Positions 2,545 through 57,991 of a stretch of DNA of 64,000 bases are shown piece by piece (position 1 is the first letter of the stretch; every line of letters begins with the position of its first letter). Under the pieces are notes generated by a model. The model was not told where the DNA came from. It worked only from the letters and a program-made list of their open reading frames with translations, and did not search any database. This DNA is from an uncultured Alphaproteobacteria bacterium (lineage in GTDB: Bacteria > Pseudomonadota > Alphaproteobacteria > CAAHEQ01 > UBA3637), in contig CALXXW010000013.1 in NCBI GenBank assembly GCA_944392785.1, positions 52,903-116,902 of the forward strand, written 5' to 3'. Position numbers and translations under genes: made by a program.

Positions 2545-3120
2545 ATGATTGCGCAGTATATTATTTTGGTTTTATTGATTGGATATTTGGGGTGGCAGTT
2601 GTTAAGTGCTATTCGAAAAACACCTGCGGCATCGGATAGTATTCGTCTTGTCTCACGGGAGACGGGACAAATTTTAGAAATGAAATTGCTGAATATGGAA
2701 AAAAGCCAATCGTCTGTTTGGGATGAGGCGCTTTTTTTGGCAAATGCTAAAATTGTTTTTCAAGCGGTCTCTGAGGCTTTTGCCTCCGGTAATTATAAGG
2801 ATTTAAAACTTTTTTTAACACCGGTGCTTTATAGCACTTTTCAACAGTATATTGATGAGCGTAAAAAGAAAAACCAAAAAGTGGATTTTTCGCTTATCGG
2901 CTTTTTATCGGCCAAGGTTGTGGATAAAAATGACAGTTTAAGCAAAATTACGGTTCAATTTGTCACCGAACAAATTAACCTGTTGAAAAATGAAAACGGA
3001 GAAGTCATTGAAGGTGACCCCATGAGTATTTCAACCGTGTCAGATACCTGGACGTTTAAAAAATGTGATAAGTCCAGTTGGATCGTTTGTGCAACAAAAA
3101 GCGAGGCCATTCATGCATAA
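2545..3120 (+). CDS. timA: Tim44/TimA family membrane protein
   Basis: N-terminal TM helix; FL..AK..F..V..AF..G and ITVQF.TEQI...G.VIEGD.....V.DTWTF motifs; conserved position between secB and mltA. Confidence 0.85.
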   Translation: MIAQYIILVLLIGYLGWQLLSAIRKTPAASDSIRLVSRETGQILEMKLLNMEKSQSSVWDEALFLANAKIVFQAVSEAFASGNYKDLKLFLTPVLYSTFQQYIDERKKKNQKVDFSLIGFLSAKVVDKNDSLSKITVQFVTEQINLLKNENGEVIEGDPMSISTVSDTWTFKKCDKSSWIVCATKSEAIHA

Positions 3121-4138
3121 ACTGACGTCTCTTTGTTTATTGGGCTTGGCTTTGGGCTTGGTGGGCTGTAGTTCGCATCCGCTTTCTCAGGGGCGGAAAT
3201 TTAACTTGGTAGAGGCTGATTTCTCAGACCTTTCAGGCTGGGAAATCGATGATTTTGTTGAAGCGCGTCCCGCTTTATTGAACAGTTGCGCCCAAAATAC
3301 TGATAAGCGTCTGATTGATTTTTGTGCCACTTTGGCTGCAGATGAGGAAATGGATTCAGATGAAATACGGGTATTGATTGAAGAGACATTCCAACCCTAC
3401 CTTGTCGTTGCGGACGGCTCATCCAAAGGAGTAATCACCGGTTATTATGAAGCGGAATTAAGTGGAACCAGAGAACGGGAAAACTCGGCACAAGTTCCTA
3501 TTTACGCCCAGCCTTGGGATTACCAAAAAGACAAGAAATATGAGACGCGTCAAGATATTGAAAAACACGGGATTCATGCTCCGATTATTGCATGGGCAGA
3601 TGATCCGGTCGAGTTATTTATTCTGCATGTTCAAGGATCGGGACGTATGATGACACCGGATGGTGAAATTCGATTGGGATATGCCGGTAATAACGGTCGA
3701 ACATTTAAAGGGCTGGGGGCGATTTTGGCTGAGGAAGGTTTGTTATCCGAAACAGGACACTCTATGCCGGATATTAAGCAATGGCTACAGAATCATCCGG
3801 ACGTGGCGGTGCGGCTCATGCGGGAAAACCCACGCTATATTTTCTTTAAGGAAGTAGAAGGAGAAACACCTTATGGAACGGCCGGGGTTGTTTTAACACC
3901 GATGCGCTCGGTTGCTGTGGATAAACAGTTTATACCCATGCATACATTTATGTGGTTAGAAACACAGACACCGGATAAAAGTGATTTGAATCGTTTGGTC
4001 GTTGCTCAGGATACGGGTAATGCCATTAAGGGAGGTGTTCGGGCTGATTTCTTTTGGGGACATGGAGAAGATGCTTTTGATAATGCCGGCCGCATGAAAA
4101 GTATGGGTCGTTATTACCTTTTGCTGCCAAAGGATTAA
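3113..4138 (+). CDS. mltA: Membrane-bound lytic murein transglycosylase A (lipoprotein)
   Basis: Lipobox LVGC; ITGYYE, LHVQGSG, NPRYIFF, AQDTG.AIKG..RADFFWG motifs. Confidence 0.93.
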   Translation: MHKLTSLCLLGLALGLVGCSSHPLSQGRKFNLVEADFSDLSGWEIDDFVEARPALLNSCAQNTDKRLIDFCATLAADEEMDSDEIRVLIEETFQPYLVVADGSSKGVITGYYEAELSGTRERENSAQVPIYAQPWDYQKDKKYETRQDIEKHGIHAPIIAWADDPVELFILHVQGSGRMMTPDGEIRLGYAGNNGRTFKGLGAILAEEGLLSETGHSMPDIKQWLQNHPDVAVRLMRENPRYIFFKEVEGETPYGTAGVVLTPMRSVAVDKQFIPMHTFMWLETQTPDKSDLNRLVVAQDTGNAIKGGVRADFFWGHGEDAFDNAGRMKSMGRYYLLLPKD

Positions 4139-47786: not shown

Positions 47787-48781
47787 TTGGCCGTCACACA
47801 ATCCTGTTTATTTGCTTTTAGTTTTTTACAAAAGGCAGCCGCCTGGTCTTTTGTTTTAAACTTACCGACATGTAAGCGATAGAACGTTCCCTTTCCGGCG
47901 ATTTGAGCCTCTGTTATCACATATGGCATATCTGATAACAGCGCCTTATTTTTAGCCAGAATACGCGGCCAAGCTTTTTCAACCGAGGCTTTTTTAGAGG
48001 ATGAGAAAAGCTGCACCTTCCACTCTCCCATATCCGATGAAGCCTTCTTAATCGGCTCCTTTATCGGGTTTTTCACCTGAGGGGCCGGATTTTCCTCGAC
48101 TTTAATCTGGATAATCTCTTTTTTAGGTGCTGCGGCATCTGCCGAATCAACCGGTCGCACTTCGGGAGGAACCGGAATAACTTCCGGTGGCGTGACATCC
48201 ACAACTTCAGGAGTAACAGGAGGCATTTCATCAAGTGGATTCACACCATCGGCTGCATCAGCCGAGACAAAAGTTTCAGGAGGTGTATTTTTTTCAATTT
48301 CTACCAAGCGAGGCAACACCGGTTTTTCCGGCTCCGGAAAGAGTTTTTCAACCTTTGTCGGGAGGGCATCCGTACGAATACGATTATAGACCAATTTGTC
48401 CTGATCCGGAATGACCATACCCCCCGGCTGTTCCGGTTTTACTTTAACCGGTGTCGCTGTTGCTGTAATTGTCATAATTTTTTCCTCGTCTTGCGCATCC
48501 GTCCCAAACAACAAAACGCCGGTAATAACGGCAGCCAAAACACCTATAAAAATGCCGCCGACTAAAAAATGCAGTTTCAACCCGCCGGAGGACAATTTAT
48601 CTTCAAGGTCATCAAATCGAAGAGAAGTGGCCGAAAAAGAGGCAAAAATTTCATCAGGCGTCTCAGACGAGCCCTCGCCTTTCTCTGGTTTTTGTGAAAC
48701 GGAGGGATCAATTTTTTCCTGAGATATTTCAGACTGAGCCAAGCCTTCTGACAACTCTCTTATTTTTTCGAACTCATCCAT
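47783..48781 (-). CDS. SPOR domain cell division protein, FtsN-like
   Basis: Single TM helix, KVKPE.PGGM.IP.QDKLVY, Pro-rich linker, C-terminal SPOR (VQL.S, FYRL.VG.F, FC..LK....C). Confidence 0.88.
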   Translation of the reverse strand: MDEFEKIRELSEGLAQSEISQEKIDPSVSQKPEKGEGSSETPDEIFASFSATSLRFDDLEDKLSSGGLKLHFLVGGIFIGVLAAVITGVLLFGTDAQDEEKIMTITATATPVKVKPEQPGGMVIPDQDKLVYNRIRTDALPTKVEKLFPEPEKPVLPRLVEIEKNTPPETFVSADAADGVNPLDEMPPVTPEVVDVTPPEVIPVPPEVRPVDSADAAAPKKEIIQIKVEENPAPQVKNPIKEPIKKASSDMGEWKVQLFSSSKKASVEKAWPRILAKNKALLSDMPYVITEAQIAGKGTFYRLHVGKFKTKDQAAAFCKKLKANKQDCVTAK

Positions 48782-48890
48782 GATTTTTCTCCTTACTTAC
48801 CAATGATGTTCAGCCTAGCATATTTTGCAGTCTTTTGACAAGCATTATTTTAAAAATAATCGAAAAATGACAAAAAAACAAAAAAAATAC

Positions 48891-48919
48891 TTGACGTGAG
48901 ATTTATTTTAGAGTATCTT
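48891..48919 (+). promoter_or_regulatory. Promoter of tRNA-Leu
   Basis: TTGACG-17 bp-TATCTT, preceded by A-tracts. Confidence 0.6.
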
Positions 48920-48944
48920 CGGACTCAAGCGCTTGCCTTTAGAT

Positions 48945-49032
48945 GCGGATATGGCGGAATTGGTAGACGCAACAGACTTAAAATCTGTCGGAGATTTTCT
49001 CCGTGCCGGTTCGATTCCGGCTTTCCGCACCA
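48945..49032 (+). tRNA. tRNA-Leu (TAA)
   Basis: GCGGATA..GGTAGACGC, ACAGA-CTTAAAA-TCTGT anticodon arm, long variable arm, GCCGG-TTCGATT-CCGGC T arm, ACCA end. Confidence 0.96.
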
Positions 49033-49196
49033 TATGTATTTCTCTCCTTTATTGTTTTGACAGAAACAAGAAAGGAGAGTTTTTTTGCTATTTGCTGCTC
49101 TTTTTTCCCATACTGGGTTGGTTATTTTTAAGACTATTATCTTTAGATTGGCACACCTTCAACACAAACAAAACACTTAGCCGTAAAAGAAGGAGT

Positions 49197-51521
49197 TCAA
49201 AAAGAGCAATGATGCTTTGCAGCCAAATGATTGATTCCCTCTTCGGTCAATGCCGGAAGAGCACCAATATGGGATTTCATTTCCTTTAAAATATAGCAAA
49301 TCTCATCATGTAAAACCCACCCATGAAAGCTGTTTTGCGGAACAATACCAGCCAAACTTTCATTCAGAAACCGATGAAAAGAGTTAAGTTGTTCAGTGGT
49401 ATATCCTGCTTTTTTCTGACTTGACCCCCTTAACAGGAAAGATGTCGGAAATACGGCTATTTGTCCGCCTTTTAAAATAATTTCATGCCAAAAAGGTGTA
49501 TCTTCAGCACTTGGAAAATGATCAGAATAGCGAATATTATTTTTTTCTAAAAAATCTCTTCGTATCATTGCAGAGGGGTGAAATATGGGTACATTAAAAT
49601 AAGTGGTAATCGCGGCATCTGACAGATCTTGGCTTGTTGGCTCATATCCTTCCAAGGCCTTGAGACTTAAAGCGTTCAACTTGTCCTTATCCATAACATC
49701 AGTATATGGAGGAACCGCAGAACCGACAACGGTAATATCCGGGTGCTGTTCCAAAAAATCGACCTGAACCTGCAATCGAACGGGTATAGAAACATCATCA
49801 TCATCCATTCTAGCAATATATTTACCTCGAGCTGTTTCTATTCCTCTGTTTAGGCTATAGACCAATCCTCTATTTGTCTCATTAGTTAAGACAATGACCC
49901 GTTCATCCCGTTGGGCATAACCTTTTAAAATCTTTGCCGTATTATCTGTTGAACCGTCGTTAATAACTATCAACTCAAAATTTTTATATGTTTGCGTCAG
50001 CATTGATTCCATCGCTTGAGATAATAATTTCTCACGATTATATGTAGATAATATTATAGAAACCTTCGGCTTTTTTACCTTGATACGATCTTTTTCATCC
50101 GTATATTTGTAGGCTCGATATGTATAAAAGGGAGCATGCAGTTTTAACAACCATAACACATTACCTTTGTCATCTAACTCTGCCGCCGAAGCCTTTTTGC
50201 TTGAACCATAGGAGACAAAAAATGTACCGTTATCTGTCAGACTGACACCTCCCATTGTATCTGCAGCATAGGGTGTATTTTGTATGTTAACTTTTGCTAT
50301 TTTGTTTTTTTCATCCAGCTTAATTCGCATAATACGGGAGGTTGTCTGCCGGGGATAAAAATTTTTATTTTCAGAAGAAGAAAAACCTTTTGATTGATTG
50401 TCAAACAGTAAAAGTTCATCCTGGCTCACAAATACAGGCATATGCTGACCGATAAAATACTCTGAAGATTCCAATCCAAAATCATCATGAAGGCCTCCCA
50501 GTGTCCATAAAATTTCACCCGTTTGACGGTCAATTTTAATCAATGACGATTGTGCAGCCAGAGACACAATCAAATTATTATCCTTTGGATCAATCAGTAG
50601 TGTATTATAGTGCAGATAATCTGAAAATTCTTTATTGCTAAAATGACAACGCTCTTGGGTCAAGCATGTATCGAATAGCTGAGGATGATCAGAGCTTCTC
50701 CAAAAAAAGATAACCTGACCATCTTTAATTTCTTCAATCACTAATTCAACTATTCTAATAGGCTCCCCTGTTTTAGGATGATAGACCTCTGTCCTGTTGT
50801 AGGTCGATAAAATATAATGATTCTTTCCAATTATCAAAGATTCGTGATTATCCACATAAGGTGATTTAAAATCTTTATATGACAACATATTTAACCGCTT
50901 CGTTTCACGGAACCTTTCATCCATAACGATAATACTTCCCCAGAGATAGTTCATGGGAGGAATGGGTTCTTCCTGCTGCATAAAGGTATTGACAACACCA
51001 CCGTCTTTTAATGCTGTTTGTTTAAAATCCGAAACACAGCCCCCTTCAGAATCATTGGTACGATAATATAGTAGTTTTCCTGATATATCAATAATATAAG
51101 CATATCCTTTATAGCGACAAGAAGCCTCAAACGGAGAAATATAAATTAACCCATTGGCAACTGGTTTAAATGCTGTCACCGTATAATCCGGCATCGAATC
51201 CGGACGCAGAGAAATTGTATATTCTTTTTCCCCAATTTTAATGTTTAATACCTCACCCTTTTTTATGGCATCCAATGAAAAAAATTGCACTTGCTTTCCA
51301 TATGTAATGACATTTGTCGTTAACGCCGAAACACTTTGGGGCGCATATTCATAAACATCCGATTCAAAGGGCGGCATTAAATCCATCTCATTTATTTTTA
51401 ACACCGCCCCAGCTTCCTCCGTGAAAAAAATAAAATTACTTTCCGATTGAAGAAGTATTCCTCCTATAGTACCAAGAAAAGCAACTATAAAAACGGATAT
51501 AAAATAGACAAAATACTTCAT
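49197..51521 (-). CDS. Arylsulfotransferase-like domain fused to a family 2 glycosyltransferase
   Basis: N-terminal TM/signal; DNHE, DYLHYN, GEILWTLGG, GQH, LFDN, YRAYK (ASST-like); KVSII.STYN, INDGSTD, YIARMDDDD (GT2). Confidence 0.8.
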   Translation of the reverse strand: MKYFVYFISVFIVAFLGTIGGILLQSESNFIFFTEEAGAVLKINEMDLMPPFESDVYEYAPQSVSALTTNVITYGKQVQFFSLDAIKKGEVLNIKIGEKEYTISLRPDSMPDYTVTAFKPVANGLIYISPFEASCRYKGYAYIIDISGKLLYYRTNDSEGGCVSDFKQTALKDGGVVNTFMQQEEPIPPMNYLWGSIIVMDERFRETKRLNMLSYKDFKSPYVDNHESLIIGKNHYILSTYNRTEVYHPKTGEPIRIVELVIEEIKDGQVIFFWRSSDHPQLFDTCLTQERCHFSNKEFSDYLHYNTLLIDPKDNNLIVSLAAQSSLIKIDRQTGEILWTLGGLHDDFGLESSEYFIGQHMPVFVSQDELLLFDNQSKGFSSSENKNFYPRQTTSRIMRIKLDEKNKIAKVNIQNTPYAADTMGGVSLTDNGTFFVSYGSSKKASAAELDDKGNVLWLLKLHAPFYTYRAYKYTDEKDRIKVKKPKVSIILSTYNREKLLSQAMESMLTQTYKNFELIVINDGSTDNTAKILKGYAQRDERVIVLTNETNRGLVYSLNRGIETARGKYIARMDDDDVSIPVRLQVQVDFLEQHPDITVVGSAVPPYTDVMDKDKLNALSLKALEGYEPTSQDLSDAAITTYFNVPIFHPSAMIRRDFLEKNNIRYSDHFPSAEDTPFWHEIILKGGQIAVFPTSFLLRGSSQKKAGYTTEQLNSFHRFLNESLAGIVPQNSFHGWVLHDEICYILKEMKSHIGALPALTEEGINHLAAKHHCSF

Positions 51522-51694
51522 TTGAGTATAACATCCTTTATTAAAAAAGAACAGTGGTACAAATATTCGTATTTAGATAAAACATAAAAGAAATAGTAAG
51601 TCAAGTTTTTTATCACATGATATTCCTCAACTTCCAAGGAGTGACAGAAAATTAACTCTTATTTTTCAGAAAAATCTACCACATATGAATCAAT

Positions 51695-54600
51695 TTACTC
51701 AGCAGCAATTTCTGCTAACTTTTTCATGATTTTCTCAATACCTTGCAACCGATCCTCTACTTTACCCCAGGGGCGTATAATCAACAATTTTTGATCCGGA
51801 CGTATCCGAATACTTCCCATTTGTGATGAAATATAGCTGATTAAACCGGCCGGATTCGGAAATGTGTTGTTATGAAAACTGATACTGGCACCTTTTGTTC
51901 CGGCATCTAACTTTTCAATATTCACCTGTTTGGCCAATAGTTTCAAATGAATCGTAATCAAAAGATTATCCACCTCTTTGGGATACGGTCCAAAACGATC
52001 AACCAACTCAGCTCGCAAAGAATCTATCTCCTCAGTGTTTTTAATATCACTAATTCGATGATAGAGAGCCATTCTAATATCTAAATCTTTAATGTAAGTA
52101 TCTGGAATAAGAACCTGTAATCCTATAGAAATTTGTGGAGAGTAATCTTCGTCTTTTACGGATTTCTCTCTTTGTCCGATCGTTTCTGAACGACGAGCAA
52201 AAATCGCCTCCGATAGCATCTTTTGATACAAAGCAACACCGACCTCTTTAATATGACCGGACTGATCATCTCCCAGTAAATTACCAGCACCACGAATATC
52301 TAAATCATGACTTGCCAATAAAAAGCCGGCACCAAGACTATCCAAGCTTTGCATAACATTGAGCCTTTTTTGAGCTCCCTCACCCAAACGTTGACAAGGA
52401 GGTGTGGTTAAATACGCATAAGCTCTTAATTTACCGCGCCCCACGCGACCACGTAATTGATACAATGCGGCTAAACCGAACATATCTGCTCGATAAACGA
52501 TCATTGTATTAACAGCCGGCATATCCAATCCGGATTCAATAATGCTGGTTGCAACCAAAACATCATATTTTCGATCGGCAAAAGCTGTCATGATTTGCTC
52601 CAATTTTGCCGGAGACATTTGTCCGTGCGCCTCGACCACCCGAGCATCCGGAACAATTTCCTTCAATATATCAACAACTTCAGACATATCCGAAATGCGC
52701 GGACAAACGAAAAAAACTTGTCCCCCGCGAAACTGCTCTCGTAAAATGGCCTCTTTGACAATAACGGCATCAAATGGCATAACGAATGTCTTAACGGCCA
52801 GACGATCTATCGGCGGTGTAGCGATGATTGACAACTCACGCACTCCGGATAAAGATAACTGAAGAGTTCGTGGGATAGGGGTTGCACTCAACGTTAATAC
52901 GTGAACACCGGCTTTCAGCTCTTTTAACCGCTCTTTATGAGCCACACCAAAATGTTGTTCCTCATCAATAATGACAAGACCCAAATTGTTAAATTGAATA
53001 CCCTTGGATAATAAGGCATGTGTTCCAATCACAATATCCAGCGTGCCCTTTTGCAACTCTTGCCGCACCAACCCTGCCTCTTGTACTGAGACAAGACGAG
53101 ATAAACTTCCAATACGGATAGGGAATCCTTGAAAACGTTCGCGAAAATTCTGCGTATGTTGTCGTGCCAATAATGTTGTCGGAACAACGACAGAAACCTG
53201 ATACCCCGACATAACGGCCAAAAAAGCGGCTCGCATAGCTATTTCTGTCTTACCAAAACCAACATCTCCGCAAACCAATCGATCCATGGGACGGCCGGAA
53301 GCAAAATCAGTTTCTATTTCTTGAATGGTCCTTAATTGATCTTCTGTTTCAGCATAAGGAAATCTGGCACAAAATTCTTGATATAAACCGTGAGGTGCTA
53401 AAATTTTATCCATATGATTCACAGCGCGCGCAGAAGCAATTTCAATTAATTTCCCTGCCATTTCGAATAAATCCTTTTTAACGCGCTCTTTTCTGTTCTT
53501 GAACTGTGATGAGCCCAAACGATCCAGAGTTGCACCTTCGGCGCTTCCATAGCGAGATAAAATATCGGCATTCTCAACCGGTACGAACAAGCGATCTTCA
53601 CCTTCATAAACAAGGCATAAGCAATCATGTGCAGCGCCTCCGATTTGCAGAGTTCTCAATCCTTCGAAACGCCCTATCCCATGTGTTTGATGCACAACCA
53701 AATCCCCGACATTCAACGTTGAAAGATCTTCAATAAAGCGGTCTTTTTTACGTTTTTTGGGTGTCCGCAAAATACGTTCTCCGAACAAATCTGTTTCGGT
53801 AATGATAATAAAATCCTTGCCCGAAAAGCCTTTCTCAAACGGAGCAATCAATAAACTGGGAGCTTTTTTTAAAGCTTCTGTCCATGTCTCAGCATCAGAC
53901 AATAACGTTTGCTGTTCACGCAACAATCCCCTCAATCGTTCCACCGATCCTGCCGTTGCTGCTGTCACAATAACCCGACGTGTCTCCGTCCGTATAAACC
54001 GAGATAACGCTGCCATTACATCTTGACGCTCCAGCAATCGCACATCAACAAAATCTTTTCCGGCGCGCCCTCCCATATCCGGTGTATTGGGCTCCAGAAA
54101 AGGTGATAACAAATATGTTTGACGGGGCGCCAGCTGTTCTTCTAGCTCTTTGGGCGACAGAAAGAATAACTCTGGCGGGATTGGATGATAAGGGGCATTT
54201 GTTTGAAGGTTATTTAGCAAGGCCTGTTTGCGTGCATCATAATAATCCATAATTTGCTCAAAGCGAGAGGAAACGGCATCTGAGACCTTAAAATCCAACG
54301 TCACCGCAACGTCAGGCGCATAGTCTAACAGAGTTGCCATCTTATCATAGAAGAGTGGTAAAAAGTGTTCAAGCCCCTGCACATAGCGCCCGGATGACAC
54401 ACTTTCGTAAAATATATCTTCCTGAGAACGATCAAACAGCGTTCGATAAGCCGTTCTAAAACGTGAAATACTGTCCGGGGTCAATGAAAATTCTGCCATC
54501 GGCATTAGAAAAAGCCGCTCTAATCGACTTGTTGTGCGTTGCGTTAAGGCATCGAAAAAACGTAAAGAATCAATCTCATCTCCGAAAAAATCCAAGCGCA

Positions 54601-56497: not shown

Positions 56498-57417
56498 ATA
56501 TTCTCCTTAAAAAACGACTTGATTTTTCTTTGAACGGATATCATTTCCGTATCAGCATACACGCTTTGACAAAATTCTGCAACTCCTTTTTGTCCGCGAG
56601 CATACCAAGCAATATGCTTCCGTGCAATAAATAATCCCTTTCTGCCGTAATAACTTAATAACAGATCTAAATGTTGCAACACCAAATCAACCTTAGAAAA
56701 AAGCGGGGTCGTCCCAGTTTCAATTTCCGTCAACATCCAAGGACGTCCCAAAGCGCCTCGCCCAACCATGACACCTTCGGCCTGTGACGAGGATAGAGCC
56801 TTCTTTGCCGAAAGATGATCGACAATATCTCCATTAACAATAACGGGTATAGAAACGGACTCTTTAACACGTTGCACAATCCCCCAATCTGCTTGACCGG
56901 CGTAGCCCTCTTCTTTCGTGCGGGCATGTATTTCCAAACGCGAGGCTCCGGCTGATTCCAGCGTTTTGGCAAAATCAACAATGGATATATGCTCATTATC
57001 CCATCCCAGTCGCGTTTTGACAGACACCGGAACAGACACCCGAGAAGAAATCGCTTCTGTCAACTCCGCTGCCAAAAGCGGATTCCTCATCAAAGCGGCT
57101 CCGCTTCCGTTGGTAATCAATTTTTTCACGGGACAACCCATGTTGATATCCACACCTATCGCTCCGTTATCCACAGCAGCTTGAGCGGCTTCAATCAAAG
57201 CCTCCTTATTCACACCGACCAGTTGAACGACAATATTTTTTTCATCTTGAATAGACATCATTTTACGAGTTGTCGGATGATTTCGATGAAAACTTTCCAC
57301 ACCCATCATTTCGGTAAAAAGCACTTGATTTCCAAATAACCGCACCATATGTCGAAACGGCTTATCCGTGACACCGGCCATCGGCGCTAATAAAACCGGC
57401 TTAGGAAGGTGTGGCAT
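56494..57417 (-). CDS. dusB: tRNA-dihydrouridine synthase B
   Basis: LAPMAGVTD.PFR, DINMGCP, VK.RLGWD, NGDI, MVGRGA.GRPW, RKH..WY motifs. Confidence 0.95.
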   Translation of the reverse strand: MPHLPKPVLLAPMAGVTDKPFRHMVRLFGNQVLFTEMMGVESFHRNHPTTRKMMSIQDEKNIVVQLVGVNKEALIEAAQAAVDNGAIGVDINMGCPVKKLITNGSGAALMRNPLLAAELTEAISSRVSVPVSVKTRLGWDNEHISIVDFAKTLESAGASRLEIHARTKEEGYAGQADWGIVQRVKESVSIPVIVNGDIVDHLSAKKALSSSQAEGVMVGRGALGRPWMLTEIETGTTPLFSKVDLVLQHLDLLLSYYGRKGLFIARKHIAWYARGQKGVAEFCQSVYADTEMISVQRKIKSFFKENI

Positions 57418-57991
57418 CTGACCCCCCTTTTATTTTAGATTTCAGACGTACTAAATCTCCCGACACAGCCTCTAAATCCTTAGCCTTTGGGAACAGAATG
57501 CGCATCGCACGAGCCATCCAATCATAACTTTTTTGATACTCTTGACGCGCCTCATATAGCGCAGAAACTTTCAATTGAGCCGGCACATAATTATTCTGAG
57601 CCGCATACTCATACCAAAACAAGGCTTGATCCGGATCTGCCTCTCCCCAAGCGCTGTCCTGAGCATAAATAGCTCCCAAGCGCATAGCTGCCTCATCATG
57701 GTGATTTTGAGCCGCCAACTTATAGTAGCGCAGTGCTTGTTCCAAGTTCACGGCTATTCCTTGACCCTTTTCATAAGCCCGAGCGACAACGAACTGACTT
57801 TTAGGATCCCCATATTCTGCCAACTTGAAATACCACATCATATTCCAGTATGCCGCATCTTCATCGGAACCCTTTTCTTCCAGGGGTAAATTCCGCATAA
57901 ACGGCATATCCGGTGTCGAAGAAATTTGAGCCCGCCCCTGAAACGCAAAAATAACACACAGGCTGATAAAAATAACTTTTTTTTTCAACAT
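57401..57991 (-). CDS. Sel1-like repeat protein with signal peptide
   Basis: AE.GD..SQ......YE.G.G, A..YY.LAA, A..WY..AA....AQ repeats. Confidence 0.85.
   Translation of the reverse strand: MLKKKVIFISLCVIFAFQGRAQISSTPDMPFMRNLPLEEKGSDEDAAYWNMMWYFKLAEYGDPKSQFVVARAYEKGQGIAVNLEQALRYYKLAAQNHHDEAAMRLGAIYAQDSAWGEADPDQALFWYEYAAQNNYVPAQLKVSALYEARQEYQKSYDWMARAMRILFPKAKDLEAVSGDLVRLKSKIKGGSDATPS

Follow-up and report, generated by a model that had tools for sequence, protein, structure and literature searches.

Canonical arylsulfate sulfotransferases (ASSTs) are periplasmic enzymes that transfer a sulfuryl group independently of 3'-phosphoadenosine 5'-phosphosulfate (PAPS), by a ping-pong mechanism running through a sulfo-histidine; according to a 2026 review, no natural ASST substrate has been identified and the physiological roles of these enzymes are poorly understood (PMC13426309). 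The review describes Cpz4, from caprazamycin biosynthesis in Streptomyces, as preferring the sugar hydroxyl of glycosides over phenolic hydroxyls. In three solved ASSTs an arginine contacts or surrounds the sulfate (Ec R374, St R335, Dh R301), according to PMC13426309 and two 2026 preprints, including bioRxiv 10.64898/2026.10.08.757629; the residue roles used below come from the review and from this named preprint. Here we describe a gene in which an ASST-like domain is fused to a family 2 glycosyltransferase (GT2). It lies on a 64,000-nucleotide stretch of DNA from an uncultured alphaproteobacterium (contig CALXXW010000013.1, positions 52,903 to 116,902; hereafter the window), where 49197..51521 on the minus strand forms one intact open reading frame (ORF) of 774 codons plus stop, with an ATG start. 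The fusion is real and, taken as a whole, is under purifying selection. What is new is the way in which the domains are combined, together with a separate subfamily of ASSTs from which the arginine is missing; the kinds of component involved are already known.

Two domains in one chain

The N-terminal part of the protein matches the Pfam families Arylsulfotrans (PF05935, residues 121-441, E 2.4e-22, 79.9 bits against a curated cut-off of 24.2) and Arylsulfotran_2 (PF14269, residues 170-457, E 1.2e-19, 71.3 bits against 27). The two domains were modelled apart with AlphaFold2 (AF2); a full-length MAFFT alignment, in which the GT2 domain had come to lie under the last third of the ASST homologues, was left unused. 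The model of residues 1-481 (predicted local distance difference test, pLDDT, 92.0; predicted template-modelling score, pTM, 0.88) consists of a helix at residues 2-25, a beta-sandwich and a beta-propeller (Table 1), with a block of pLDDT 96-97 over residues 31-120. The first 10 Foldseek matches of the propeller model are all Cpz4 or E. coli ASST with probability 1.00, the best being Cpz4 (9KF4/9KF6, E 5.6e-21, TM-score 0.66-0.70) and the next E. coli ASST (3elq/4p04). An ASST-like N-terminal domain, as proposed in the initial annotation made from the letters of the sequence, is hence seen both in the sequence and in the predicted fold. The motifs listed there were all located at the expected places, namely DNH (residues 224-226), HYN (304-306), QH (359-360), FDN (373-375) and YRA (468-470) in the propeller, and DGSTD and MDDDD in the GT2 domain.

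H304, N306, H360 and N375, which a profile alignment to 3elq places on catalytic positions of the E. coli enzyme (Table 1), are invariant in all 36 ASST-like sequences aligned, and the fusion protein keeps every one of the 19 invariant columns of that alignment. For the third active-site histidine (E. coli His252) the candidates are H226, conserved in more than 90% of the sequences, and the invariant H235, in a region that the 3ELQ alignment omits. The initial annotation had also remarked that the usual S.R motif reads SLA (residues 320-322), leaving a likely catalytic arginine missing. The arginine is indeed absent, since A322 aligns with both E. coli Arg374 and the Cpz4 arginine, yet this is not special to the gene. 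The column holds A in 20, G in 2, K in 1 and R in 13 of the 36 sequences, and the 22 members with A or G keep every other catalytic residue; loss of the arginine is therefore a trait of a subfamily and not a sign of gene decay. Because this defining residue is missing, we file the domain as ASST-like and not as a canonical ASST. The closest relatives of the propeller are standalone proteins of about 470-490 residues, 30-54% identical, those from genomes belonging to uncultured gut Alphaproteobacteria. In a quick IQ-TREE phylogeny, which does not settle the number of independent arginine losses, the fusion propeller is sister to the standalone protein P0003 (support 100) and groups with members associated with GT2 or mdo genes in seven rows (support 88), inside the 16-row Arg-less clade starred in the tree.

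The C-terminal part matches Glycos_transf_2 (PF00535, residues 488-656, E 1.2e-36, 126.7 bits against a curated cut-off of 23.3). Its AF2 model (pLDDT 93.7, pTM 0.91) finds TarP, CgT/GalT1, SpsA, RmlT, TarS and WrtF in Foldseek. All 40 columns that are invariant across 19 GT2 relatives are kept in the fusion, including NDGSTD, DDDD and an ED pair; in the numbering of the GT2 alignment these motifs are D48/S50/D52, D99-D102 and E199/D200, each present in 19 of 19 sequences. The ED pair, within SAEDT, we take to be the catalytic base by analogy with other GT2 enzymes. No NCBIfam GT2 equivalog (EpsE, TuaG, PgaC, WcaA and others) reaches its cut-off, the best, EpsE, scoring 126.7 bits against 450 and over the N-terminal half only. 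The closest relative is a standalone GT2 (P0055), 61-62% identical, whose locus was not found in metagenome contigs, where the best match is 44-45% identical; P0055 and P0003 lie on separate contigs (2,602 and 16,177 nt, respectively). A single N-terminal transmembrane (TM) segment stands just before the catalytic domain in all 13 standalone orthologues scanned, and the closest paralogue in the own genome (375 residues, contig C4) is likewise TM-anchored.

The two halves are joined by a 13-residue linker, TDEKDRIKVKKPK, which runs from the propeller end (YRAYKY) to the first GT2 strand (KVSIILSTYN). Standalone ASST-like proteins end 0-26 residues past the YRAYKY-type motif (15 of 16 within 8), in standalone GT2s the domain opens with 'P.(V/I)S(V/I)' behind the TM segment, and pLDDT is low at both model ends. 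In effect, an exported ASST-like module would appear to sit where the N-terminal anchor of the GT2 enzyme used to be.

Small as these genomes are, the GT2 family is greatly expanded in them, with 12 matches in the own genome and 24 in a second one (G001). Many standalone TM-anchored members have a further module of about 90 residues at the C terminus, with a pattern resembling 'HP.W.D ... KWD.WG.E.F' (P0074, P0079, P0087, P0099, P0101, P0136, P0149, P0158, P0162), which is doubled in P0074, P0079 and P0101, has no Pfam match in the two proteins scanned (P0074 and P0087) and is absent from the fusion protein.

The fusion gene across strains and databases

The stretch is present in public sequencing runs of 10 studies, chiefly chicken-gut metagenomes, and no RNA dataset is among the runs listed for it. 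Contigs from four runs of four studies were placed on 48700-52000. The junction is spanned without a gap by contigs of three independent studies, X4 (2137 nt, 49003-51139), X7 (4883 nt, placed at 48700-51676 and taking in the whole fusion gene) and X9 (1424 nt, 49635-51058). The pieces from X3, a run whose study may itself have yielded the window, end at 50078 and restart at 50129, so that none bridges the junction. An assembly artefact, a possibility that the initial annotation had held up against its own proposal, is ruled out by the junction-spanning contigs of the three other studies.

The same contigs carry a signal of selection. All four indels listed fall outside the ORF (48872, 49079, 51548, 51605): the 2.3-kb ORF is free of indels and stops in every placed contig, against four indels in 0.98 kb of flanks. 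The 19 single-nucleotide polymorphisms (SNPs) listed within the ORF comprise 12 synonymous and 7 non-synonymous changes, that is, a ratio of non-synonymous to synonymous polymorphism per site (pN/pS) of about 0.16; two further SNPs of the ORF are not listed and stand outside the 19 counted. Clustered at 90% identity, the fusion protein has seven members, drawn from assemblies of NCBI, ENA and Logan, three recorded by a single source and four by two or three. Compared with the window copy, strain variants show changes at 12 residues, all outside the catalytic and invariant positions, and linker residue 482 is V, A or L depending on the strain. A start giving 805 residues is called in some strains. 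We rejected it: the upstream extension is not coding because it contains a 2-nt indel between strains, and in the window copy the frame is open for 791 residues, short of that length.

No second instance of the architecture was found. In a collection of 5.8 billion clusters, both domain sets occur only in the protein's own cluster (P0002) among 51 matches. In a HMMER search of 1.84 billion representatives, P0002 alone spans residues 1-774 among the best 150 matches listed; the 16 mid-length matches with two aligned stretches that were scanned for domains are all double GT2 proteins, and the longer multi-stretch matches, left unscanned, have their best stretches entirely within the GT2 part of the query. 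The fused form was found neither in 40 relatives nor in a further 79 genomes of the family, the ESM Atlas returned GT2 clusters only (scores up to 0.87), and a literature search for an ASST fused to a glycosyltransferase turned up no paper whose title or abstract was relevant. Within the searches made, the architecture is therefore not the common and characterised one that it might have been; it is unique to one species-level lineage. Because it is confined to one species-level cluster, there is no deep conservation of the two domains as a fusion.

Topology, gene neighbourhoods and proposed function

The fusion protein has a single hydrophobic segment, at residues 5-23 (Kyte-Doolittle 2.34, against a maximum of 1.07 elsewhere), in agreement with the N-terminal TM or signal, and the lack of a TM segment between the domains, noted at the outset. 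Because there is no second TM segment, both domains must lie on the same side of the membrane. The helix is preceded by 'MK' and followed by the net negative stretch QSESNFIFFTEEAGA, for which the positive-inside rule would predict an N-in/C-out orientation. Of 12 standalone ASST-like proteins scanned, 11 begin with a hydrophobic signal and the other has a lipobox-like LISGC, and several standalone GT2 orthologues carry K/R-rich N-tails of 25-30 residues. Two cysteines of the C-terminal GT2 subdomain (C742, C772) are invariant. Arg-less propellers have two cysteine pairs (C135/C162 and C286/C292), of which three cysteines are absent from all 14 sequences bearing Arg or Lys and the fourth, C292, occurs in 3 of those 14; the own genome has two DsbA-like genes. 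Helix charges, the signals and tails of relatives, the periplasmic location of canonical ASSTs and the conserved cysteines together favour the extracytoplasmic side. The topology puzzle posed by the initial annotation has to be recast, as the standalone GT2 orthologues are already TM-anchored.

The own genome (1.12 Mb in 25 contigs, 98% complete) gave no match to PF01507 (cysD/cysH-type PAPS_reduct), PF01747 (ATP sulfurylase) or PF01925 (TauE), and for an adenosine 5'-phosphosulfate (APS) kinase only borderline P-loop matches. Since sulfate-activation genes are lacking, any sulfuryl transfer would be PAPS-independent and fed from outside. The genome does encode a canonical ASST of 539 residues that keeps the arginine and the catalytic histidine, in an apparent operon with a 161-residue exported protein and an OprB-type porin (L078, contig C4, 9847-13209).

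Three further observations concern these genes. The order 161-residue protein - canonical ASST - OprB recurs in L031, followed there by an ASST-like gene. A TM-anchored GT2 that is 50% identical to the GT2 half of the fusion lies at L078 7164-8291, 1.6 kb from the canonical ASST operon. A second ASST-like gene of the own genome (L002 1203-2637, contig C13), about 38 kb from the fusion gene and outside the window, is 34% identical, has Lys at the Arg374 position and stands beside a UDP-glucose dehydrogenase gene; it is split by a frameshift into a 101-residue N-terminal ORF and a 381-residue open frame in another reading frame, and is a pseudogene or an assembly error.

Relatives of the propeller clade provide genomic context. 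We compared 15 distinct loci with a standalone clade member, counting four doubly reached places once and judging one locus by ORF sizes only. Adjacent cysD and cysN genes are found in six of the 15 (L022, L023, L027, L028, L098, L102), a canonical ASST with an Ig-like N domain is near in five (L022, L027, L028, L098, L031), and TauE is near in four scanned loci (L020, L027, L028, L098). The order canonical ASST - TauE - CysD - CysN - DUF4352 - ASST-like recurs in L027, L028 and L098, loci of related gut Alphaproteobacteria; this cluster has the look of a module devoted to sulfation in which two distinct ASST-type enzymes take part. The cluster-linked ASST-like members of L022, L027 and L028 have Ala and that of L023 has Gly in place of the arginine. 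No description of such canonical ASST-TauE-CysDN clusters was met in literature searches on other topics, and no dedicated search was made. Glycan genes are also found beside clade members. In L096 a TM-anchored GT2 gene overlaps the start of an ASST-like gene, and the pair lies beside mdoG and mdoH; this GT2 is 57-58% identical to that of the fusion, the second-closest relative found after P0055, and the ASST-like protein is 42% identical. Two GT2 genes abut the ASST-like gene in L101, and in L026 the ASST-like gene is beside mdoG and mdoH without a GT2. As ASST-like and GT2 genes are neighbours in L096 and L101 in differing arrangements, a functional partnership is to be preferred over chance.

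Some side observations were made at these loci. In the recurrent cluster the exporter is annotated TauE/SafE, the DUF4352 protein is small, and CysN, being only 446-458 residues long, has no APS kinase fused to it. Clade ASST-like genes are split over two frames or ORFs in at least two further relatives, L096 (9759-11244) and L031 (7911-9367), and several tblastn matches to ASST-like genes in genomes of the family have one in-frame stop, which may reflect either recurrent decay or errors of metagenome-assembled genomes (MAGs). Near the mdoGH, GT2 and ASST-like group of L096 lies a gene (2834-3700) for a 288-residue protein with a DXD sugar-binding glycosyltransferase domain (PF04488, E 3.2e-12) and a weak match to the TcdA/TcdB catalytic glycosyltransferase domain (E 1.1e-6, no stretch passing alone). 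Eukaryote-like repeat proteins are encoded beside ASST-like genes in L020 (5360-7108) and L023 (5244-7409), with ankyrin-repeat proteins of 448 and 131 residues and a 721-residue protein with teneurin-type EGF domains.

From these data we infer the topology, the sulfuryl transfer, the glycan acceptor and the donor of the fusion protein. Our leading reading, offered tentatively and as a possibility more than an expectation, is that of an extracytoplasmic, membrane-anchored enzyme that extends one envelope glycan and sulfates it independently of PAPS. The N-terminal helix would anchor the protein in the inner membrane, with both catalytic domains on the outer, periplasmic face; the GT2 domain would add a sugar to the envelope glycan, and His360 of the propeller would accept a sulfuryl group and hand it to a hydroxyl of the same glycan, aryl sulfates of the gut serving as the PAPS-independent source. 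The proposal of the initial annotation, a single chain that builds and sulfates a glycan, is in this respect supported but unproven, the support coming from the sulfur, GT2 and mdoGH neighbourhoods of relatives and from the likeness to Cpz4.

Several points weigh against this reading. Its main weakness is that an outward-facing GT2 domain would be without an obvious nucleotide-sugar donor, because we know of no nucleotide-sugar pool in the periplasm; TarP, CgT/GalT1, RmlT, SpsA, TarS and WrtF act in the cytoplasm. Literature searched for GT-A enzymes of the periplasm yielded no paper with a relevant title or abstract. DsbB was not found in the own genome. Without the arginine that A322 replaces, sulfuryl transfer may be weak, altered or absent. 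The GT2 half holds just 4 of the 19 SNPs (two synonymous, two non-synonymous), too few for selection on that half alone to be judged, and the fusion is limited to one species-level cluster. As to the neighbourhoods, in L096 the GT2 gene comes before the ASST-like gene, opposite to the order in the fusion, and that ASST-like gene is among the split genes mentioned above; the counts include close kin (L027, L028 and L098 belong to one genus, L022 and L102 to another); and near more distant GT2 relatives (up to 45% identity) an ASST-like gene was found in none of 77 metagenome loci.

These points lend themselves to other explanations. The alanine at 322 would fit a propeller that is no longer a sulfotransferase, its His-centred pocket doing other chemistry, such as transfer or hydrolysis of another anionic group, or binding a glycan that is sulfated or anionic. 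Within the fusion it would then help the GT2 domain to recognise its substrate, or play a lectin-like part. Ala or Gly stands where Arg374 is expected in 22 of 36 family members; the three solved canonical ASSTs all retain the arginine, which is also conserved across an alignment of 100 sequences, and natural ASST substrates are said to be largely unknown (PMC13426309 and, for the arginine, the 2026 preprints). We nevertheless consider this rather unlikely: H304, N306, H360 and N375 are invariant in the Arg-less members, which is unexpected for a pure binding module, and such members adjoin cysD-cysN, TauE and canonical ASST genes (L022, L023, L027, L028), which ties them to sulfur chemistry. 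The narrow distribution, one 90% identity cluster of seven members with no instance in the 79 other genomes of the family, would suit a recent, nearly neutral fusion by deletion in which one half, the GT2, is miscompartmented and inert and the protein is kept for the other half. Decaying ASST-like genes in the own genome and in relatives, the low GC content of the gene and a GT2 half with too few SNPs for a selection signal of its own point the same way. Such an origin is unlikely, in our judgement, as all 40 family-invariant GT2 residues are intact, the ORF stays free of the indels that its flanks have accumulated, pN/pS is low, and the two gene families are neighbours in differing arrangements in L096 and L101.

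The donor problem would vanish if both domains were cytoplasmic behind a reverse, N-out anchor, with the GT2 domain using cytoplasmic nucleotide sugars and the ASST-like domain modifying a lipid-linked or nascent glycan before export. The nearest GT2 structures in Foldseek act in the cytoplasm, as do the cysDN products, and an N-tail of only two residues would be tolerated by an N-out anchor. This arrangement is improbable, given the Lys before the helix and the negative stretch after it, the signal-peptide or lipobox-like N-termini of propeller relatives, the periplasmic canonical ASSTs, the long K/R-rich N-tails of several standalone GT2s, which are unlikely to be translocated, and the conserved cysteine pairs in both domains. 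A secreted or surface factor acting on a partner cell, which would supply nucleotide sugars and sulfated donors and have its own glycans modified, is more remote still and strikes us as far-fetched. The genome is small, relatives carry ankyrin-repeat and teneurin-like EGF proteins, and the type-II-like anchor of the GT2 family recalls, in our own comparison, Golgi enzymes; partner-dependent lifestyles have been proposed for other reduced-genome gut lineages (PMC12306168). The Pfam scan, however, revealed no secretion-system signal and no neighbouring secretion genes, and relatives have envelope and sulfur genes in the neighbouring positions (mdoGH, OprB, cysDN). The outward-facing, glycan-sulfating enzyme is thus the reading that we retain, at the tentative strength given above.

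The surroundings of the gene (Table 1) agree with the description given at the outset, of a visibly AT-richer gene next to tRNA-Leu. Its GC content is 36.9% and its GC at third codon positions (GC3) 31.1%, within the lowest 2.2% and 1.5%, respectively, of 730 ORFs of at least 200 residues (mean GC 44.7 ± 3.2%; genome GC 44.1%), and the two halves are similar (GC 36.3% and 38.0%, GC3 31.2% and 31.0%). The tRNA-Leu(taa) gene identified by ARAGORN lies 165 nt from the stop, tail to tail on the opposite strand, and is counted here as a neighbour of the fusion gene. On the other side, a gap of 173 nt separates the gene from the upstream end of mfd, which is encoded on the same strand. No evidence was found for a mobile island at the tRNA, and no integrase or other mobile-element gene was seen. 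The only candidate for an island boundary is an A-rich, imperfect direct repeat of 38 nt (71% identity) whose copies at 48863-48900 and 51489-51526 flank tRNA-Leu and the fusion gene, and which is probably due to chance. The 1.3-7.8 kb downstream of mfd in 10 relatives contain no serS, M50 or SPOR gene and no fusion domain; since gene order after mfd is not conserved among these relatives, synteny gives no verdict on insertion. Scans for promoters (18 promoter-like sites against 12.0 ± 3.8 expected) and terminators (one terminator-like site against 1.6 expected) were uninformative. A Sel1-repeat protein is also encoded inside the window (57401-57991).

Table 1. Features of the fusion gene and its surroundings (positions in the window) and sulfur clusters of relatives (positions in the named loci)
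Feature	Position	Strand	Basis
ASST-like::GT2 fusion protein (P0001), whole ORF	49197..51521	-	ORF, Pfam, independent contigs
N-terminal hydrophobic helix, aa 1-25, read as signal anchor or uncleaved signal	51447..51521	-	Kyte-Doolittle, AF2
Beta-sandwich, aa 30-117, ahead of the propeller	51171..51434	-	AF2, homology to N-terminal parts of standalone ASST-like proteins
ASST-type beta-propeller, aa 125-473	50103..51149	-	Pfam, AF2, Foldseek
His304, equivalent to E. coli ASST His356	50610..50612	-	profile alignment to 3elq
Asn306, equivalent to E. coli ASST Asn358	50604-50606	-	profile alignment to 3elq
Ala322, site of the sulfate-binding Arg (E. coli Arg374)	50556..50558	-	alignments to 3elq and Cpz4
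His360, equivalent to the sulfuryl-accepting His436 of E. coli ASST	50442..50444	-	3elq alignment (YTQH / FDN; GQH against TQH436)
Asn375, equivalent to E. coli ASST Asn451	50397-50399	-	3elq alignment
Linker TDEKDRIKVKKPK, fusion joint, aa 474-486 (13 aa)	50064..50102	-	ends of standalone homologues
GT2 (GT-A) domain with C-terminal helical subdomain, aa 487-774, plus stop	49197..50063	-	PF00535, AF2, Foldseek
NDGSTD (aa 521-526)	49944-49961	-	motif location
MDDDD (aa 572-576), DxD metal and nucleotide-sugar motif	49794..49808	-	motif location
SAEDT (aa 671-675)	49497-49511	-	motif location
tRNA-Leu(taa), neighbour, convergent with the 3' end of the fusion gene	48945-49032	+	ARAGORN
Sulfur cluster, full (L098 in reverse order)	L027 2895-9287; L028 2902-9281; L098 7363-13740		
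Sulfur cluster, partial	L022 7831-13709; L023 7516-11219; L102 4516-8811		

Comparison with known systems

The selected ASST-like::GT2 fusion, together with clade neighbourhoods that hold sulfate activation, canonical ASST, GT2 and periplasmic glucan genes, points to bacterial glycan acceptors for a family in which natural substrates have been missing, and as a clonable protein it offers a concrete test of this idea. A large ASST subfamily that has lost the arginine and kept the rest of the catalytic site also bears on the mechanism and on biocatalytic sugar sulfation. A bolder and, to our mind, doubtful proposition is that the fusion is a 'Rosetta stone' for an unrecognised PAPS-independent system of envelope-glycan sulfation in gut Alphaproteobacteria. 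In such a system a canonical periplasmic ASST would harvest sulfuryl groups from gut or host aryl sulfates, or from donors made by CysDN and exported by TauE; the Arg-less subfamily, specialised for carbohydrates, would place them on a glycan; and outward-facing, membrane-anchored GT2 enzymes would build that glycan. If this were true, the ASST family would gain its long-missing physiological acceptor, and GT-A glycosyltransferases would work outside the cytoplasm of a Gram-negative bacterium. With both domains facing outward, how a GT-A enzyme obtains its donor there would become a question in itself. It may be speculated that sulfated surface glycans on a gut commensal are relevant to the mimicry of host mucins or glycosaminoglycans.

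Among characterised proteins, Cpz4 is the best match of the fusion protein in the PDB by sequence (E 7.5e-18 alone, 4.4e-39 with a profile) and of its propeller by fold (root-mean-square deviation 2.4-2.8 Å over about 381 columns). Both have the H.N, QH, FDN and YRA motifs, whereas Cpz4 retains the arginine (SGRNTH against SLAAQS), is just 23% identical and is a separate protein of an antibiotic cluster with no glycosyltransferase fused to it. The AssT of E. coli CFT073 (3ELQ/3ETS/3ETT/4P04; PF05935) shares with the fusion a beta-sandwich followed by a six-bladed propeller and, in the fusion as a putative one, an export signal. Counterparts of its His356, Asn358, His436 and Asn451 are all present and Arg374 is replaced by Ala, but overall the two resemble each other only weakly (profile E 9e-10, confined to two short stretches; TM-score about 0.55/0.48; 13-15% identity). 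Pfam recognises the Ig-like N domain PF17425 in the canonical ASST of the own genome but not in the fusion protein, and the latter carries a GT2 domain, which E. coli AssT does not.

The GT2 half resembles inverting GT2 enzymes that act on cell-envelope polymers, namely TarP/TarS, CgT (GalT1), SpsA, RmlT, WrtF and the chondroitin polymerase K4CP, in its PF00535 domain, its DxD (DDDD), NDGSTD and ED motifs and its GT-A fold (TM-score 0.56-0.70). Those enzymes are soluble or peripheral cytoplasmic proteins; the subfamily of the fusion differs in being TM-anchored at the N terminus, in having two invariant cysteines in a helical subdomain at the C terminus and, often, in carrying the module of about 90 residues. 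As for the sulfur gene clusters, the propeller and the last gene product of the canonical ASST - TauE - CysD - CysN - DUF4352 - ASST-like operons are members of one Arg-less clade. Unlike the relatives that carry these operons, the own genome is without cysD, ATP sulfurylase and TauE, and in it a member of the clade is fused to a GT2 glycosyltransferase instead.

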